Positions 16,240 through 63,358 of a stretch of DNA of 64,000 nt are shown piece after piece (position 1 is the first letter of the stretch; each line of letters starts with the position of its first letter). A model generated the notes under the pieces. That model saw nothing but the letters and a program-made list of their open reading frames with translations, was not told the origin of the DNA and made no database searches. The DNA lies in NCBI GenBank assembly GCA_030264375.1, contig JASCQW010000146.1:26159232-26223231 (forward strand), read 5' to 3'. This stretch comes from Carcharhinus longimanus (taxonomy: Eukaryota). A program made the translations under genes and the position numbers.

Positions 16240-17075
16240 ATCTCTCCATTTAAATAATATTCTGCTTTTCAATTTTTTCTGTCAAGGGGACAAGTTAACA
16301 TTGTCCCTCAAGGTACTCCAATTAGCAAATTTTTGCTCACTCAACCAATCTATATCCCTTTACAAACCCCTTATGTCCTCTTAACTTACTTTCCTACCTA
16401 TCTCTGTGTCATCAGCAAATTTGGGAACCATATATTCAGTCCCTTCATCCAAGTCATTGATATAAATTGTAAATGACTGAGGCCCCAGCACTGCTCGGTG
16501 CAGCTCCTCATATCTTACCAATTTATGCCTACTTTGCTAACTAACCTCAATCCTCTATCCATGCTAATATAATGTTACCACCTACACAAAGAGATTGATT
16601 TTGTGTAGAAGCCTTTGATGTAGTACCTTGTCAAATGTCTTCTGGAAAGCCAGAGTACACCACATCTACAGGGTCCACATTATCCATGTTGCTTCCCAAA
16701 GAACCCTAATAAATTGGTCAAACAATTTCCCTTTGATAGAACCACAGTGACTCTGCATGGATGCACTCAGATTTTCCAAGTGCCCTGCTACAACCTGCTT
16801 AATAATAAGATTCCAGCATTTTCACCAACAGATGTTATGCTAACTGCCCTGTAGTTTCCTATCTCCTTCATTTCCTGAATACAGGAGTACATCCCCTAAT
16901 TTCTAATTTGATGGGACCTTTGCAAAATCTAGGAAATTTTAGAAAATTAAAACCAATGTGTCAATGCCTCAGCAGCCACTCTTCTTATGGCCCCAGGATG
17001 AAGTCCCTCAAGACCTGGGGCCTGCCAGCCTTTAGTTTTAATGATTTTCTCAATACCCTTTCCTTGGCAATTGTA
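16240..17075 (-). mobile_element. CR1-type LINE RT fragment
   Basis: Minus strand shows KFADDT (aaatttgctgatgacaca near 16405-16422) and DFQKTFDKV-like remnants. Confidence 0.75.
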
Positions 17076-17329
17076 TGTGTTTTAAGCTCTATTGCAATGA
17101 CGCATGCAAATCTGCTCTGCACCACAAAAATGGCTCTGGGCATAGCTTTAAATAGAATGAATGCAACTCTCCTTATCTTGTGACTGAACACAATCAATCA
17201 CATCAGTCACCTCCTACGTAATCACTGTTATCCAACTTGATGGGGTTCAATTAGTTAAGTTCAACTTATGCAATCATGACAAAACTTGTTTTGCTGCAAC
17301 CTCACACAAACAGCCGTGCAAACTTTTTA

Positions 17330-40619: not shown

Positions 40620-41480
40620 TGATGACACTTAGTGACAACACTAAGATTGGTGGCATAGCAGACAGTGAAGAAAATGATCTCCAATTGCAATGGGATCTTG
40701 ATCAATTGGGCCAGGGGGCTGATGAATGGCAAATAGAGTTTAATTTAGACAAATGTGAGGTGATGCATTTTGGTCGATTCAATCAGGGTAGCACTTAATG
40801 GTAGGGTGTTGGGGAGAGTTACAGAACAAAGAGATCTAGGGGTGCACGTTCATAGGTCCTTGAAAGTGGAGTCACAGGTGGACAGAGTGGTGAAGAAGGC
40901 ATTCGGTATGCCTGGTTTCATCAGTCAGAACACTGAATACAGGAGTTAGAATGTCCTGTTGAAGTTGTACAAGACATTGGTAAGGCCATACTTGGAATAC
41001 TATGTGCAATTCTGGACACCCTATTATAGAAAGGATATTATTAAACTAGAAAGAGTGCAGAAAAGATTTACTAGAAGGCTACTGGGACTGGATAGACTAG
41101 GACTTTTTTCTCTGGAGCATAGGAGGCTGAGGGGTGATCTTATAGAAGTCTATAAAATAATGAGCAGCACAGATCAGCTAGATAGTCAATATCTTTTCCC
41201 AAAGATAGAGGAGTCTAAAACTAGAGGGCATAGATACAAAAGTGTCCAGAGGGGCAATTCTTTCACACAGAGTGGTGAGTATCTGGAACAAGCTGTCAGA
41301 AGTAGTGGTAGAGGTGGGTACAATTTTGTCTTTTAAAAAGCATTTAGATTGTTACATGGGTTTAGAGGGATATGGGCCAAATGCAGGCAATTGGGATTAA
41401 TTTTAGGGGTTTTAAACAAAAAGGGCCACCATAGACAAGTTGGGCCAAAGGGCTTGTTTGCATGCTGTAAACCTCTGTTA
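40620..41480 (+). mobile_element. CR1/HER1-type LINE 3' portion
   Basis: DNTKIGG, KCEVMHFG, LYKTLVRPYLEYYVQFWTPYYRKDIIKLERVQKRFTR, RLRGDLIEVYKIM. Confidence 0.9.
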
Positions 41481-41654
41481 TTCAGAGAAAGTTCAGGAGG
41501 GGGCACTAGCCAATGACAAACATGTTTTAGTCACTGGACTGTATGGTGGTGTTGTGGTTAAATCACTGGAATATAAATCTGTAGCATTGGCCCATAAATG
41601 CTGAAAAAAGTGAGCTCATATTCCATCTTGGAAATTTCAAAATATTAATTGTCA

Positions 41655-42252
41655 AGCAGAGAGACCTAGGGATGCAAGTGCATAGTTTCTTGAAAGTGTT
41701 GTCACAGGTAGACAGGGTGGTGAATAAGGCACTTAGCGCACTTGCCTTCATCAGTCAGAGCACTGAATACAGAAGTTGGGATGTTGTGTTACAACTTTAC
41801 AAGATCTTAGTGAGCCCACATTTGGAGTACTGCATATAATTCTGGTCGCCCTGCTATAGGATGGATGTTATTAAACTGGAAAGGGCACAAAAAAGATTTA
41901 CAATGTTTGAATTATGGAGGAGGTGCTGGATAGGCTGGGACTTTTTTCCCCTGGGGCGGGGGGGACCTTAAGAGATTTCTTAATCATGAAGGGCATAGAT
42001 AAGGTGAATGGCCAAGGGAGTCCAAAACTAGAGTGCATATGTTTAAGGGAAGAGGAGAAAGATTTAAAAGGGACCTGAGGAGCAACTTTTTCACAGAGGG
42101 TGGTGCATATATGGAATACACTGCCAGAGGAGGTAGTAGAAGCATGTACAATTACAACACTTAAAATACCTTTAGAGAGGTGAAATGGTTGGGAAAGGTT
42201 TAGAGGCATATGGGGTCAAATGGGACTAGTTCAGTTTACGAAACCTGGTTAG
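41655..42252 (+). mobile_element. Second CR1/HER1-type LINE 3' portion
   Basis: Collinear with 40830-41440 (LYKILVSPHLEYCI..WSPCYRMDVIKLERAQKRFT). Confidence 0.85.
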
Positions 42253-54488: not shown

Positions 54489-55013
54489 TTATGGTGAAAT
54501 TAAAGTGATGGACACAAAATGGACTCTGGGAAGGGACATTAAAAGGCACTGACTTTGGGCACAGACAGTTCACAAAGAGTTAAAACTAGCAATATCTGAA
54601 TTGTTGCAGGAAGCTGGTCAGACCTGGGGCACTTTAAGACTTGAGATAAGAGCAGACCCAGAACAATGAGTTTGATAATAAGATCAGCCACTGATGGGGA
54701 CATGAATGCATAAATGTAATGAAATCAGCCACTGATGGGGACATAAAATGTATATATTGAAACCAGTCATTGATCGAGGACATAACTGCATAAATGTATC
54801 CATGTACAATGATGTCTTAACTGTCCATGTCTGTACCTGTCTGTTTGTAACAATGTGTTAAGTGTCGATGGTACAAGTTGAGTAGGCAGAAACGGACAAT
54901 GTGTTAACGACTAATGTCTAAAAGGTATAAAGATATTCAAATACCATTGTTTAGTTCAGAAGGTAGCTGCCAAGTACTGCAGAGTACCAGTGCTTTCTCC
55001 CAATATAGTGGAA
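54488..55013 (+). mobile_element. ERV LTR copy A (U3-R, lacks U5)
   Basis: Aligns with 60891-61410; three atcagccactgatggggacat-type repeats; TATAAA near 54926. Confidence 0.85.
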
Positions 55014-55218: not shown

Positions 55219-55422
55219 TGTTATGGTGAAACTAAAGTGATGGACACAAAATGATTACCTGGCACACAAAATGGACCCTGGGAAGGGACATTAAAAGGCA
55301 TTGACTTTAGACACAGACAGTTACACAAAGAGTTAAAACCTGCAGAACTTGTCCAAAACTTGTCCAAAACTGTTTTGTTGAGCCTCTAAGTCTGACTCCA
55401 AAGTGGTAAATTTCCCACAACA
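55219..55422 (+). repeat. 5' LTR (copy B), internally deleted, 204 bp
   Basis: TGTTATGGTG..CCCACAACA; joins the first ~125 nt of U3 directly to U5. Confidence 0.88.
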
Positions 55423-55424
55423 AT

Positions 55425-55443
55425 TGGCATACTCGGCAAGGAT
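55425..55443 (+). promoter_or_regulatory. Primer binding site, most similar to tRNA-Ser
   Basis: TGGCATACTCGGCAAGGAT, 2 nt after the LTR end, vs the tRNA-Ser complement TGGCGTAGTCGGCAGGAT. Confidence 0.75.
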
Positions 55444-56169
55444 CTCATTGCTGGTAAGTTCGACCGTTTGGCCACAATCAGAAAGCCGGGGTAGAGATCA
55501 TTGAATCTGTGGGAATCAGACAAGGTCAATAATTCAGTTTAAAAGGGGTTAAAATTAAGGGCTATTTTATGGTATTATAGAAATAAGTACTAATTGCTGA
55601 TGATATAGTGACAAGTAACTGCTACTTGTGTTGACTGACTAGAGGACAAGGAAGTGCCTGTCTCAAATGCGTAGCCTCCCCTCACACGAAGGTCAGTACC
55701 CTGAAGGGGGCATAGAGGCACCAAGGGCACTTAGGATTGTGAAGCACAAGTGGCAAAGATAGGTTATCAAACTCTGTAGTGGCAAACAAATGCAGAGTTG
55801 ACACCTGTTTGCATCAAAGTTTGTATAGTTGGGTTTGTATAGTTGTAAAGTGGTGCGGAAAAGGAGCTGATCAACTCTGACCTACAGCCAGACTCCAGTG
55901 AAGAAACACATTGCTGAGGCGGTAATAGTGGAGCCATGAGTATAAATTGAAACCCTGAGATGGTAGTGAAACATGGTGCTAGAGTAGTAATAGTGGCCTG
56001 GGGTAATAAAATCCCTATGGTAGAGAGTACACATTACTAGGAGGTAATCGTGGCCATAAGGTGTACGAAACACGTTGCCAAGGAGGCAACTGTGACCGGG
56101 GGTAGTGAAGTCTGCGAGATAGCAGATAAAGAAGTTGAGAGAGAATCTGCAGGATCTCTTATTGAAGTG

Positions 56170-57444
56170 TATATGACAGATAGACGAACATTAATGAAGA
56201 GGATGCAAAGGGATGGCTGGGAATTTTCTCAGACCTTAGAACAGCAGAGAAAATGAATACATGGGGAAAAGGGAAACAAGACAAAAGGAGGCCAGGGTAT
56301 TAATACTACATCAATTAGCGGGACTAATTGAACAAGTAGTCACTTCTACTAAAAAGGTGGAGTGAAGATAAAGAGATTAGAGAATCAGAATCCAGAGTAA
56401 GGGAACTGGAGAAACGAAACCAAGTGTTAGAAAAGAATCAATGGGGAGGGGAAACTGTTCCTCTACCTCCTGATGAGTCCACACTACAGGGACCAACCGC
56501 TCCTCCAGAGGAGTGGGTAACGGTAGAACACAACTTAGCGCCAGTAACCTGATGGGGAACAGATGCGCAGCCAAAAGCGAATTATAAACTATTCACCCCA
56601 GGCGAAAGACAGCAGATAATGGCTTCCTATAAGGGCAAATACTAAATTCTGGGAAGAATTAGATACAATATGGGTAAGACACTAACTACACCTGAGAGAC
56701 ATACACCAACTGGCCAGGGCAGCCTGTCCAGCGGATAAGTGGAGGCAGGTAGCAGGTGGACCTGCCACTCCTCCGGCACAAGATTATAGTGGGGGACGTT
56801 GGACATACGTAGTCGCCCTAACAGCAGGAATAGATGCCCAACATGCACCTGTCACCCAGTTTAACTGAAATTCAGAGAGTTTTAGGAAATGGTCCTACTA
56901 ACTGGAGCAGAATTACCACGACCAAGCAGCTAAAGGGGGAAGGAGCTTCTGAGTACGGGAACGATTGTTCCAAGTACACCAGGAATGCTCAGGGCAAGGA
57001 AACCCAGGCCATGGGGATCAAGTGTTCATCCAGGCTTTCAAGGATGGGCTTTCTAGTGCTTACTAAACCATCCTAAAAACGGAAGCAATTATGTCCCAAA
57101 ATTACGATGAACTGGTAGAATGGGCTAATGGCGTAATGGGAGGCAGAGAGGAGAAATCCCAGACAAGAGTAACGCTAGAAAGAGTAGCCGCTTAGAGTAA
57201 CAGGAACGGAACTAAGTCCAAAGTGACTTGCCACAATTGTGGCTGACTAGGGCATTTTGCAAGGGACTGCGGGGTCCCAAGGAGAGGAAACAAACTTGGA
57301 AGCAGTGGGAAACATTATAGTCACTGTAATAAAAATGGACACACAGAAGCAGTGCGTTGGGGCAAACATGGGAGACCCCCGATCTGATCCATGACCACAG
57401 CGGAACTGGAAGGACCAAAGAACCTCCAAGGTCAGCAAGATTGA
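56170..57444 (+). pseudogene. gag: ERV gag remnant (5' boundary approximate)
   Basis: MHR-like NWSRITTTKQLKGEGASEYG; knuckles CHNCG*LGHFARDC (57229-57270) and degenerate YSHCNKNGHTEAVRW (57316-57360); ends QQD-TGA in frame with pro. Confidence 0.8.
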
Positions 57445-57640
57445 CAGTCTGCAGCCCCCATTCATAAGGGTGAGGAGGACAGAAGGATTCGTGTGTCTGC
57501 ACTAGTAGGGGGCAGGCAATGTGAGATGCTGGTGGACACAGGAGCATCCATATCTGTCACCAACCTACCCTTACTCACGACAAGTAAAATGATTAACCTA
57601 ACTGGGATAGGAGAGAACAAAACATACCTGTAGAAATAAA
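57445..57640 (+). pseudogene. pro: ERV aspartic protease remnant
   Basis: RIRVSALVGGRQCEMLVDTGASISVTNLP..INLTGIG with DTGA active site at 57535-57546. Confidence 0.85.
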
Positions 57641-57659
57641 TAATTTGTATATACTGATG

Positions 57660-59230
57660 CAGTAGTAAATGACAAACTAGAAACAGTAAGGTCAGAAAGA
57701 ATTGACAGAGGTCTATCCATGCAAGTGGCAGAACTAGTGGCACTCACACAGGCACTAGAATTATCTGAAGGCAAAACGGTAAACATATATACAAATAGTC
57801 AGCATGCATTCGGGGTAATACATGAATATATGACAGCATGGGGTAGAAGGGGGTTCATAACCACAGGAGGAACTCCTATTAAACACCAAAGAATTGAGGC
57901 ATTATTAAAAGCTAGTGAGAAATCCCGAGAAGCCACAGTAATAAAAATTAAAGCGCATCAGAAAGAACCAGGAAGAGATAACCCAGATTGGTTAAATTTC
58001 AAAGGGAACAAAATCACAGATAGAGCAGCACAATTAGCCTTAGAGCAGGAGGCAGTTGGTGAGCTGCCAATAGCAGTAACGGGATAGACAGGAGACAAAA
58101 TAGATATTCAGGACTTACATGAGGATACCTCAAAAGAGTAAAAAGGGAAGTGGGAAGCTCAGAGAGTGAGCGAAGGGATTGATAACATTTGAAGACAAAA
58201 TGATAAGGTAATGGCACCAGAGTGCATACAAAACACCTTCTTGGAACTATACCATGGACTCTCACATGAGGGAAAAGAGGCCATGGCAACTGGTATAGGA
58301 AAGGAATAGTGGTGGAAAGGAATGGGAAGGGACATAGCCTGACATTGTCACTGATGCGTGACATGTGCACAACACAACCCTGGCTGACCCATAAAAATTA
58401 AGATGGGACACGTGCCCCGAACAAAGGGACCCTGGGAACATCTGCAAATAGATTTCACAGGGCCACTACCACAATCCTGTCTATCCCGTTGTCTGGTTAT
58501 TATAGACCAGCTCACCAGGTGGGTAGAAGCATTCCCTACTACAAATTGTACTGCTACCATGGTAGCTAGAAATATTGGCAGAGGAGGTAATCCCTAGATG
58601 GGGAGTACTCCTACAAATTGATTTGGATCAAGGAACGCACTTCACTGGAAAGGTGATAAAAACAATGTGCCAGTTGATGGGAATAAAACAAAAACTCCAC
58701 ATTTCTTACCACTCACAGAGTTCTGGAATGGTGGAACGTATGAACTGAACCCTTAAGAATGCCCTAGCTAAAGCCATACAAACGTAAGGAAAAATGTGGA
58801 CAGAAGTATTGCCCACTATATTAACAAGGCTGAGAGCTACTACAAACCGTGCAACCAAATTAACCCCTTATGAACTAATGACAGGAAGGGCGATGCAATT
58901 ACCAGAAAGCATCATATCAGGTGGGACTAATGTAGACCCACTAAAAGATAAAATCAAAAGATATGTTTTGGAACTAAGCGCCCAACTAAAAGGGATGCGT
59001 AAATTAGGAAAAGATAATCAGGAAGAAAGACACACAGAGAGAGCTTGAAATGCTCCCTGTTGGGACAGCAGGAAGTCGCATCCGAGTAAAAACATTACCC
59101 GAAAAACCAGGGTTTGCACGAAAATGGAATGGGCCATATGAAGTTATAATTGGTGGAGACACCTGTGCCTGTCTCGGCATAAGAGGGAAAGGTGTATGGA
59201 AACATTAGACCCAGCTGAAATTACACAAAG
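57660..59230 (+). pseudogene. pol: ERV pol remnant: RNase H and integrase only
   Basis: QVAELVALTQALELSEGKTVNIYTNSQHAFG..KIKAH..GNKITD (RNase H); H..H..C..C, WEHLQIDFTGPLP, IDLDQGTHFTG, HSQSSGMVERMN, WNGPYEV (integrase). Confidence 0.92.
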
Positions 59231-59381
59231 AAATGAATGAATGAATTAAAGTGACCAGAGTGCTTTCCCCAAAACAGGTGATGACTACAAGCAAGAGTAA
59301 CTGATGCATTTGTGTTGGCAATATAACTTTTGGAAAATTGTTAACTTAAAGTTATAAGATTGATATTTGCTTGTTGCGGAT

Positions 59382-60852
59382 ATGTATAAGGTCACGTATG
59401 TAATTATATTACTTTGTATTGTCGCGACTGTAAACTTGACTGGGCTAGCAGATAACCTACTCTACAAGGATCATATACATTTACATGGGAATCAAACTTT
59501 TAGTTACCTGTTAGCCCAATCTGTAGAAGCCCTATTTGTGGCCACCCCTGGGTGGACCCCCCATGACTTATATACAGCAGATATCTCAGATGCACTCTGT
59601 GAAGGACAAATTGGCAAATATAAAAGGGGTATACAGGGAAGATGTATGGAACTTGTAAATCCCACAGATCCTGTGTGCAGGGGGCTCCAAGGGGTGGGAG
59701 GAAGAGCTTGCTCGGATAATGCAAGCTACCTGCTTTGTTTCTCGGGGCAGAAATAGGGATGTGCATATGCCTTGATCCCAAGAATGATTCCTGCGTACAG
59801 ACGCAGTGTGCCCGTCAGCACTGTTGGGTAAATAGAGGTCAGTTTACTTGTATCTGTAACGAGCAGAGATGCCTGAACGTAACCGCGGGGAGGCAACTCA
59901 TTTGTGGACAATGTAATGGGCCTCATGTCAGCCAAATGGACATACCTGTTTGATACTCACCAAGTGGTGGGATCAAACGGGGAGTCAAGTAAGCCGAGCA
60001 ATTGGCGGAAAACGCAAACCAATAATCAGGACACTAAATGCTACCGGACTAAGAAGGGATTTGTATTCTTCTTCAGTGGCATCTACACGACAGCAACACT
60101 AACCCTCCCGATCCTTTTTGCAGTAGGAACAATAGGACTACCACTGTTGCATGCCCTCAGAAGGGGCATATCCGGAGAAAGATAGTGACCCGGGCCATCA
60201 GCAAAGAATTCTGTGCTGATTGGGAAGCCCTGGGCATCGTCACTGGGATACGGGTTCCTTGGAGCCCTATCTCTGGTTTGGTGGGGGGTGGGGCGCAGAC
60301 AGGCAGGCAGCAGGAGTAATTAGTGCCAAAAATAGGAACCATATTATCTGTGGACTAACAGTCCTGGGAAACAGTACATCAAAAGCATTGGAAGCTGCCA
60401 ACCAAGAAATGGCTGAATTAAGATTATATGCACAGCAGACCTGATATGCAATAGACTACCAGTTAGCCCAACAGGGGGAGTATGCACAATAATAGGTGAC
60501 AAATGTATAACACATGTCACAGATAAATCCTATAACATCACCCATGTCATTAATTAGCATAAGAAAACAGCGTGATGACCTTAGACAAGGACCCAAGAAA
60601 GGGCGTACCTGGCTGGAATGGCTAGTGGAGGGATTCTGGGTATCCTATTTAATGCATGGACTGATCATTCTCATTGCAATAGTAATTGCCTGTTGCCTAA
60701 TTGTCGGATGCCTTAATGTGTGTTGCAAAGTAATGATGACTCGAATTGTGCCAGGAGCTAGCATAATCATCAAGGAAGAATACATGATGGGACCCCCCGA
60801 AGACACCAAGGATTACGAGGAAAGAAAGAAGAAGATGAACATCTACCTGTGA
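59382..60852 (+). pseudogene. env: ERV env remnant with filovirus GP2-like transmembrane subunit
   Basis: Signal peptide MYKVTYVIILLCIVATV; Cys-rich SU; basic RRKIVTR; heptad ICGLTVLGNSTSKAL..ELRLY..AIDYQLAQQGGVCTIIGDKC; hydrophobic anchor GLIILIAIVIACCLIVGCL; several frameshifts. Confidence 0.88.
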
Positions 60853-60878
60853 ACAATGCTACTGTTGTTGGTCTGACC

Positions 60879-60888
60879 AAAAGGGGGA
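60879..60888 (+). promoter_or_regulatory. Polypurine tract
   Basis: AAAAGGGGGA, 2 nt before the TG of the 3' LTR. Confidence 0.85.
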
Positions 60889-60890
60889 TC

Positions 60891-61482
60891 TGTTGGAGTG
60901 AAACCATAGTAAAGGACACAAAATGGTTACCTGGCACACAAAATGGACTCTGGGAAGGGACATTAAGAGGCACTGACTTTAGGCACAAACACTACACAAA
61001 TAGCTAAAACCTGTAGTGTTTAAATGACTTCAGGAAATGGGTCAGACCTTGAGGCATTTTAAACTTGAGATAAAAGCAGACCCAGAACAATGAATTTGGT
61101 AACAAGATCAGCCATTGATGGGGACATAACATCATAAGTGTATGTAACAAAATCAGCCATTGATAGAAGACATAACTGCATAAATGTATCTACTCTATAT
61201 ACAATGATGTGATAACTGTCAATGTCCGTACTTGTCTGTGCATAACGATGTGTTAACTGTCAATGTCCGTACTGTCTACTCAACTTGTAACAAGGTGCTA
61301 ACGGCTAATGCCCATACTGTCTATTATCTAAAAAGTATAAAAGATGCTCAGCTACCATTGTGTAGTTAAGAAGGCTGCTGCCTGTACTGCAGAGTGCCAG
61401 CGCTTCTCCCAAAGCTTTGTCCAAATAAAACTGTTTGTTGAATCTCCAAGTCTGACTCCGAAGTGGTGAATTTCCCACAACG
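60891..61482 (+). repeat. 3' LTR (copy C), full length ~592 bp
   Basis: TGTTGGAGTG..CCCACAACG (terminal CA>CG); TATAAAA at 61336; AATAAA at 61424-61429; U3 tandem repeats. Confidence 0.9.
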
Positions 61483-62344: not shown

Positions 62345-62825
62345 TTTTAAGTTTACTGATGACACCGCTGTAGTGGGTTGGTTCTCAAACAATGATAAGA
62401 CAGAGTACAGGAAAGAGATAGAGAATCTGGTGAAATGGTGCGATGACAATAATCTCTCCCTCAATGTCAGTAAAACAAAGGAGATATTCATCAAATTCAG
62501 GAATCGTACATGCCCCTGTTTATATCGAAGGTGAGGATGATCGAGAGCTTCACGTTTCTAAGGTGTTCAAATCACCAACAACCTATCCTGGTCCCTCCAC
62601 ATAGCAATACAATTAAGAAAGCCCACCAACACCTCTACTTTCTCAGAAGGCTAAGGAAATTTGGCATGTCCACCATGACTCTCACCAATGTCTACAGATG
62701 CACCACAGAAAGCATTCTTTCTGGTTGCATCACAGCTTGGAGTGGCTTCTATTTAGACCAAGACTGCAAGAAACTACAAAGGGTTGTGAACATAACCCAG
62801 TCCATTATGCAAACCATCCTCTTGT
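62345..62825 (+). mobile_element. Rex1/Babar-like LINE 3' fragment
   Basis: KFTDDTAVVG, LSLNVSKTKE, KKAHQHLYFLRRLRKFGMS..YRCTTESILSGCITAW. Confidence 0.8.
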
Positions 62826-62850
62826 CCAATGACTAAACAAGTGGAACAGG

Positions 62851-63091: not shown

Positions 63092-63358
63092 TGATGTCCA
63101 TATCCGTACCTGTCTGCTTGTAATGATGTGTTAACTGTCGATGTCTGTATCTGCCTACTCAACTTGTAGCAATGTGTTAATAGCTAATGTCCAAACTATC
63201 TACTGTCTAAAAGGTATAAAGATGCTCAACTACCATTGCGTAGTTGAGAGGTAGCTGTCAAGTACTGCGGAGTACCAGTGCTTTCTCTCAAAGTTTTGTC
63301 CGAAATAAAACTATTTTGTTGAACCTCCAAGTCGGACTCAGAAGTGGTATATTTCCCA
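63092..63358 (+). mobile_element. ERV LTR copy D (3' U3-R-U5; 5' part hidden by gap)
   Basis: Aligns with 61220-61478; TATAAA and AATAAA present; terminal CAACA missing. Confidence 0.85.

Follow-up and report, generated by a model that had tools for sequence, protein, structure and literature searches.

Does a broken envelope gene in a shark genome carry the fusion subunit of a retroviral lineage akin to filovirus GP2, and if so, how close is that kinship? The locus lies in a 64,000-nt stretch of the genome of Carcharhinus longimanus (henceforth the window), in which the initial annotation had noticed an endogenous retrovirus (ERV) env whose transmembrane (TM) subunit resembles GP2. The motifs that it named can indeed be found between 60167 and 60852 (+), spread over five frame pieces and interrupted by a single in-frame stop, and both the proviral position of the gene and its shark and ray relatives identify it as the env of an elasmobranch-type ERV family. 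The best explanation, which we hold with good confidence, is that the window env is the broken gene of a single old member of a multi-copy ERV family, that the intact Env is likely a class I fusogen with a Cys-closed internal loop, and that its TM likely belongs to the loop-type branch that gave filoviruses their GP2.

Sequence inspection, Pfam and BLAST-type comparison place the env as the last gene of a degenerate provirus at 55219-61482 (+), with the order LTR-gag-pro-pol-env-LTR. The parts of the provirus are as follows.

55219-55423 (+): remnant of the 5' LTR, internally deleted (~200 of 590 bases remain), recognised by two matches to the 3' LTR
55425-55442 (+): primer-binding-site-like stretch with a TGG start, directly after the LTR end, identified by reading the sequence
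55960-57390 (+): degenerate gag with a zinc knuckle near 57226-57270, 5' limit approximate (PF00098, E 8.5e-6)
57451-57659 (+): N-terminal part of the aspartyl protease, cut off by a deletion (PF13650, PF13975 and PF00077, E 0.001-0.003)
57660-58087 (+): RNase H (PF00075, E 2.4e-15)
58090-59210 (+): degenerate integrase (PF00665, E 1.5e-4 and 6e-3, in two frames)
59382-60193 (+): env signal peptide and Cys-rich surface subunit (SU) with stops and frame changes, the last part being the basic stretch at the presumed SU/TM junction (tblastn, P0003 residues 1-287)
60194-60351 (+): predicted internal fusion loop region, frame-broken, in which a hydrophobic Gly-rich stretch lies between two Cys codons (60212, 60349)
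60352-60557 (+): HR1 with an NST sequon (60370), ISD-like stretch, CX6C (60483-60506) followed by Ile, and a second sequon (60534), interrupted by one stop and one frame change (PF22307 and PDB GP2 matches)
60559-60852 (+): end of HR2, Trp-rich membrane-proximal region, membrane anchor and cytoplasmic tail to the stop (55% to P0003 residues 390-484)
60879-60888 (+): polypurine tract; the same tract precedes the LTR in 9 of 12 other copies checked
60891-61482 (+): 3' LTR

The 5' LTR remnant matches the 3' LTR at 86% over 128 bases and 84% over 74 bases, which amounts to a difference of 14-16% over ~200 bases. No tRNA gene was found in the 64-kb window, and the LTR ends of the provirus showed no recognisable target-site duplication. 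On either side of the provirus lies a further LTR, or part of one, that belongs to this family, at 54490-55003 (73% to the 3' LTR) and 63095-63358 (82%), and these, together with the absent target-site duplication, suggest a cluster with a nested insertion or rearrangement. LINE-like and SINE-like repeats (classed by eye) lie at 40827-41901, 62474-62836 and 16809-17183, and the window elsewhere contains 11 runs of N. Comparison with genomic copies L043 and L044 revealed that a deletion of ~1.7 kb at 57659/57660 has removed the reverse transcriptase (RT) from the window copy. None of 40 other matches spans this junction; in the copy at C81:61642271-61645856 the distance from pro to env is equally short, and internal deletions may thus recur. 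The RT of L043 scored 165-162 bits to MLV/XMRV-type, 147-142 to foamy and at most 53 to HERV-K and HIV-1 sequences, which points to retrovirus class I or III, not II.

The genome contains at least 40 places similar to the provirus: scoring 40 of 179 candidates gave 45 matches, 40 of which, the window itself aside, extend over at least 490 bases at 76-89% identity. An intact env was found in none of 30 genomic copies, several of which were only partly covered. With 6 frame changes and 3 stops over the whole gene, the window env is not a co-opted (syncytin-like) env; it is a pseudogene that makes no protein and is itself without function. Annotated intact relatives (for example XP_048454915.1) exist in sharks, the named close ones in Rhincodon, Pristiophorus and Heterodontus (54-70% over the TM) and more distant ones in Heterodontus and Mobula. 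The env of the family is ~490 aa long, and eight ungapped pieces of 50-100% identity align the intact relative P0003 to positions 59382-60843 of the window. The layout of the intact relatives (signal peptide, assigned by eye, SU, basic junction and TM with membrane anchor) can be transferred to the window. A profile search for wider relatives returned 11 proteins, all close family, and missed query members, and is therefore no guide to host range. Two relatives have unusual architectures. P0015 (XP_048473945.1, Rhincodon typus), named erythropoietin receptor isoform X1 in RefSeq, consists of a family Env ectodomain over its first ~400 residues followed by a receptor-like anchor and tail, and reflects either a genuine chimeric transcript or an erroneous gene model. 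P0023, a family protein of 646 aa, carries ~150 additional N-terminal residues in front of a family-type SU, as would be expected of an added receptor-binding domain.

The initial annotation had predicted an internal hydrophobic loop between two Cys residues and had proposed a family consensus as a check. Column tallies over the 30 genomic copies bear this out, with loop Cys1 in 21 of 21 aligned copies and loop Cys2 in 25 of 27. The two Cys of CX6C are present in 27 of 30 and 23 of 29 copies, and intact relatives agree with the copies on the loop and CX6C cysteines. The reading of CX6C followed by Ile, instead of CX6CC, is likewise upheld: the third Cys occurs in 0 of 30 copies (Ile in 28, Thr in 1, Leu in 1) and in none of the family proteins with a TM core. 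The loop cysteines are 40 residues apart in the family, 45 in filoviruses and 38 in the snake filovirus Tapajos virus and the lizard ERV envelope Env-Mab2; in the window copy their codons lie 137 nt apart (60212, 60349) versus 120 in an intact relative. A hydrophobic 13-mer in mid-loop has KD values of 1.2-2.0 versus -0.75 to 0.15 upstream of it, and a conserved Cys pair around a hydrophobic stretch before HR1, the pattern of an internal fusion loop, is thus present at the sequence level. A disulfide closing the loop and insertion of the loop into a membrane are likely, as predictions. The G-rich run in the predicted loop (60276-60306), which varies in length and often breaks the frame (also in L003, L006, L009, L014, L017 and L020-L022), is a slippage hotspot.

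The cleavage site proposed in the initial annotation differs from a canonical furin site, 20 of the 22 aligned copies having Ile at P4, and R-X-K/R-R was absent from the SU/TM junction in all 7 full-length family proteins checked; it is present in the distant members P0025 and P0026. The junction might be read as a site-1-protease-like motif; a literature search did not turn up that motif. The hallmarks of gamma-type Env are CX6CC and K/R-X-K/R-R (PMC9967133), and the close family lacks both the third Cys of the former and the furin site of the latter. Structure prediction gave models of low confidence, with pLDDT 51.7 and pTM 0.26 for the full Env (confidence <50 over residues 286-311) and 46.5 and 0.36 for the SU alone.

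To place the family, TM cores of ~100 residues were taken from 139 of 166 proteins (26 had no usable core and 1 dropped out). In a quick tree of 125 rows, from which 14 near-duplicate or garbled rows had been removed, the family, the filoviruses and Tapajos virus GP (P0041) with Mabuya Env-Mab2 (P0088) were joined with SH-aLRT 83. In a careful tree of 57 hand-picked rows, all rows with a loop-closing Cys were joined with support 96/91 and the family and filoviruses with support 92/60, the family joining Lloviu, Mengla and Marburg GP2 in 920 of 1000 bootstrap trees. After removal of the loop and third-Cys columns the family and the filoviruses still grouped in 755 of 1000 bootstrap trees (76/87, the bootstrap not having settled); with the loop columns dropped, the loop-Cys group as a whole fell to 0 of 1000. 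AU tests rejected none of three alternatives: the family with Tapajos/Mab2 (p 0.315), filoviruses with Tapajos/Mab2 (p 0.439), and filoviruses outside the other loop-Cys rows (p 0.413). These trees are effectively unrooted, their rows were picked by similarity to the shark family, and they were built without Ebola, reptarenavirus, ASLV, MLV and named percomORF sequences. The claim that the TM groups with filovirus GP2 thus holds in so far as the trees join them, but with moderate support. The ebola/marburg group is the favoured, though unproven, sister of the shark family on these TM alignments, a placement to which we attach moderate confidence. A further group of loop-Cys Envs (P0113, P0129 and P0130), one of them from the snake Ahaetulla prasina, has CX7A, without a third Cys, and a loop span of 50-53, and its place in the tree is unstable.

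A kinship between cartilaginous-fish ERV env and filovirus GP has already been published, and prior description, one of the grounds that the initial annotation had named for giving up its claim, thus largely applies. In the tree of Nino Barreat and Katzourakis (2024; PMC11521997), the ectodomains of cartilaginous-fish ERVs are the sister group of the GP of ebola-, cueva-, marburg- and dianloviruses (posterior 0.83), Tapajos virus joins lizard elements (1.0) and reptarenaviruses join tarsier elements (0.98); the authors propose three captures from retroviruses, and PMC11398700 cites this result. The hosts named in PMC11521997 are Chiloscyllium, Scyliorhinus, Amblyraja, Leucoraja and, in a table of 14 chondrichthyan loci, Rhincodon. 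Like the window family, its elements are shark, skate and ray ERV envs with an Ebola-like HR1-HR2 domain, Rhincodon typus being a host in both, and its skate elements measure 5.8-6.4 kb from LTR to LTR, like the 6.3 kb of the window provirus. The window family fits the description of that clade as chondrichthyan ERV envs whose ectodomain groups with ebola/marburg GP, and is likely the same family, matched by description and host, not by locus sequence; motif searches of the readable files of that paper gave no hit. The preprint text of PMC11521997 contains none of the terms "fusion loop", "cysteine", "disulfide" and "surface", and a term search of Horie 2021 (PMC8498845) returned no mention of a retroviral link. 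In a search that left subscription papers and bioRxiv supplements outside its scope, we found no published account of these shark elements that deals with their loop, their SU/TM junction, their SU homology or the absence of a third Cys. The anatomy added here (the loop Cys pair, the lack of a third Cys and of a canonical furin site, and the SU homology) is modest.

The SU draws the family towards a different neighbour. Among 166 proteins, the family SU profile found Mabuya Env-Mab2 (E 7e-10) and no ordinary Env. The SU of Mab2 compared with family SUs gave z scores of 12.0, 10.6 and 4.8 (0 of 60 shuffles each), and the family-Mab2 score was 135 versus 67 for the best of 59 ordinary SUs. The SU of Mab2 is in turn homologous to Tapajos GP1 (z 14.7, 0 of 60 shuffles), and Tapajos GP aligns to Mab2 over 463 columns at 27%. 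Direct comparison of Tapajos with the family SU scored at shuffle level, as did four comparisons of Marburg or Mengla GP1 with the family or Tapajos SU and that of Marburg with Mab2; profiles of the SU N-terminus found neither Marburg nor Mengla GP1, and the family-only profile missed Tapajos (E 1.1). In hhalign the family covered 351 columns with Mab2, 190 with Tapajos and 125 with Mengla, and a Cys-Pro at the SU end and the missing third TM Cys are common to the shark family, Mab2 and Tapajos. Language-model features of the SU, at 0.92-0.93 to the TLV_coat and Avian_gp85 clusters, mark it as a retroviral SU. The structural comparisons start from low-confidence models. On a second look at the Foldseek rows, the SU, in a low-confidence model, matched Ebola/Ravn GP1 with Z 2.4-3.0 (rmsd ~3.2 over ~73 residues) and gp120 with Z 2.7, weak matches that are compatible with the proximal domain which Hotzel (bioRxiv 10.1101/2023.10.07.561363) describes as common to SU, GP1 and gp120-type proteins. 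Foldseek against the PDB gave nothing at E <= 0.001, and a wide search gave only generic helices; against BFVD, the only match at E <= 0.001 was the alpharetrovirus-type EAV-HP Env, from a low-confidence model, and the SU model had no match.

The SU results could mean that the shark family is nearest to Env-Mab2 and Tapajos GP, and that ebola/marburg GP2 descends from a different loop-type retrovirus, absent from the sampling, in which CX6CC and the furin site were retained. The homology of the SU, the hhalign coverage, the shared loss of the third Cys and the shared SU-end Cys all speak for this possibility, and the AU test leaves it standing (p 0.315). The trees, however, joined the family and Tapajos/Mab2 in only 77 and 119 of 1000 bootstrap trees, the spacing is CX7C there and CX6C in both the shark family and the filoviruses, and the shared SU may be an ancestral state that has been lost to view in the fast-evolving GP1. 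We therefore regard such a separate origin as possible, though rather doubtful. That GP2 has a third Cys and a furin site and the close shark family has neither was counted against our preferred explanation, in which the shark TM and GP2 come from the same loop-type branch.

The scores of the TM against GP2 bear on a second alternative, in which the GP2 likeness reflects an old gamma-type TM core with separately gained loop Cys, and the shark family stands no nearer to the filoviruses than do the Envs of other fish. The piece at 60307-60477 (with X at the stop) matched PF22307 (Ebola-like_HR1-HR2) at 27.2 bits, the gathering cut-off being 27, and other copies scored 35.7 and 27.4, above the cut-off, and 26.6 and 19.8, below it. 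The same piece had 43 PDB matches, 40 of them filovirus GP/GP2 chains, gap-free and with E values of 3e-4 to 0.06, and no retroviral TM at E <= 10. The natural copy P0001, with an open frame, found filovirus GP2 first in the PDB (49.5-28 bits, ectodomain constructs), followed by syncytin-2 (27.1) and other retroviral TMs (<18). The family profile scored 74-53 bits to full filovirus ectodomains, 39.8 to CAS virus, 39 to syncytin-2, 16 to ASLV TM and 11.8 to MLV, figures that come from constructs of differing length in a database without fish Envs. Filovirus GP2 is thus the best match among solved structures, and the reptarenavirus likeness that the initial annotation had also raised is weaker than claimed, the score to the core of reptarenavirus GP2 (CAS virus) being no better than that to syncytin-2.

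Outside the solved structures the distinction becomes smaller. The hand-counted identity to GP2 is real and in line with the 31, 28 and 27 of 83 positions that we found to Lloviu, Mengla and Marburg GP2 (pieces 60307-60477 and 60477-60554), but it is not special, since two ordinary gamma-type Envs reach 30 and 31 of 83 to the same pieces, and ungapped identity to GP2 is 27-32 of 80 for seven ordinary Envs versus 27-35 of 80 for eight family members. The two sequons likewise stand at positions matching those of GP2, although many gamma-type Envs from outside the mammals share the HR1 sequon (PMC9967133). When 1.84 billion proteins were searched with HMMER, 514 hits were obtained at E <= 0.001; among the best 150 of these, family members lead, dozens of ordinary CX6CC gamma-type Envs score as high as 92 bits, and the values for the three filovirus GPs are 53, 51 and 50. 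In a reciprocal search from the filovirus side, the shark family was ahead by only a few bits; a reciprocal word-index search with Lloviu GP2, a method too insensitive to serve as a test, found 2 filovirus proteins only. The hhalign alignment of the family to GP2 starts 8 residues before loop Cys2, the loop sequence proper being unalignable to that of GP2.

Equal ungapped identity, ordinary Envs that outscore GP2 among the best 150 HMMER hits, the loss of support for the loop-Cys group without its own columns and the AU test (p 0.413) all favour a shared old core. Against it, the family and the filoviruses stay together in 755 of 1000 trees without the loop columns, the loop-closing Cys lies exactly 45 residues before CXnC in 12 of 12 loop-type proteins measured, and the published tree, built independently, has the same sister pair (PMC11521997). 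A loop-closing Cys is present in only 34 of 135 TM cores, namely those of the shark family, the filoviruses, Tapajos/Mab2 and four others. We judge this second alternative improbable. The suggestion that the retrovirus was instead the recipient of its TM from a filovirus-like RNA virus, for which unrooted trees leave the direction free, is very unlikely, because the SU is retroviral and, like the TM, homologous to that of a lizard retroviral Env, the env sits in its normal proviral position, and fish filoviruses lack this ectodomain according to PMC11521997.

Comparison with known systems sets the limits of our preferred reading, descent of both TMs from one loop-type branch. With filovirus GP2 (Lloviu P0114, Mengla P0140, Marburg P0159, and Ebola in the PDB) the family shares the Cys-closed internal loop, with loop Cys2 45 residues before CX6C, a gap-free HR1-ISD-CX6C-HR2 and the two sequons at matching places; it differs in that GP2 has CX6CC, a 45-residue loop span (40 in the family) and an R-X-K/R-R site. 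Marburg and Mengla GP1 show no sequence match to the family SU, and the family has no mucin-like region. The proviral context, the lack of a third Cys and the SU unmatched to Marburg/Mengla GP1 indicate that the window env is no filovirus GP gene. Env-Mab2 and Tapajos GP share a length of 460-500 aa, the loop Cys pair, the absence of a third Cys, the Cys-Pro at the SU end and a homologous SU N-terminus (direct for Mab2, via Mab2 for Tapajos), whereas they differ in having CX7C, not CX6C, a loop span of 38 and only 23-25% identity. ASLV, an alpharetrovirus with a variant gamma-type Env, also has an internal fusion loop closed by a disulfide (PMC9967133), where the Cys pair of the family is a predicted counterpart, but it has CX6CC and a covalent SU-TM link, its TM scores only 16 bits, and the RT of the family is not class II-like. 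Ordinary gamma-type Envs of fish and amphibians share the ISD-like stretch, the HR1 sequon and the CXnC loop, but mostly have CX6CC and lack a Cys that would close a loop. A CXnC subtype of anamniote Envs is listed by Chen et al. (bioRxiv 10.1101/2021.11.23.469661). In the study of Proudley et al. (bioRxiv 10.64898/2026.05.06.723177), R-X-X-R was a requirement and every candidate is reported to have CX6CC, so the shark family likely lies outside their set.

Motif conservation and analogy with known proteins suggest how the intact Env might work. It would be a trimeric class I fusogen of the internal-loop type, like filovirus GP2 and avian leukosis virus TM, and would be cleaved at the basic stretch ~7 residues before the first loop Cys. 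Receptor binding by the SU would free the loop for insertion into the target membrane, after which HR1 and HR2 would fold back into a six-helix bundle; by analogy only, a second trigger such as low pH is plausible. With no third Cys, the usual SU-TM bond of the CX6CC type would not form, and the likely partner of the N-terminal SU Cys would be the conserved SU-end Cys. Some members have an odd number of SU Cys (17, 17 and 15) and others an even number (16, 16 and 12), and this pairing is therefore not proven. A bolder proposal, which we advance tentatively and which falls somewhat short of even chances, is that shark and ray ERVs, Env-Mab2 and Tapajos GP form one old class of non-covalent, loop-type Envs with SU-internal Cys closure, that Tapajos virus captured a whole Env including its SU, and that the shark branch was the source of the ebola/marburg spike, the close members of this branch being cleaved by a non-furin protease.

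The origin of the filovirus fusion protein is a long-standing question. The published link to shark ERVs has moderate support from a short ectodomain alone; it is reproduced here with other sequences and is still weak. The added anatomy suggests that whole envelopes, and not only ectodomains, were captured at least once, and that there are intact natural shark ORFs whose structure could clarify the GP1 side of filovirus origin. If the bolder proposal is true, such ORFs would offer the best present-day models of the retroviral precursor of the filovirus spike.
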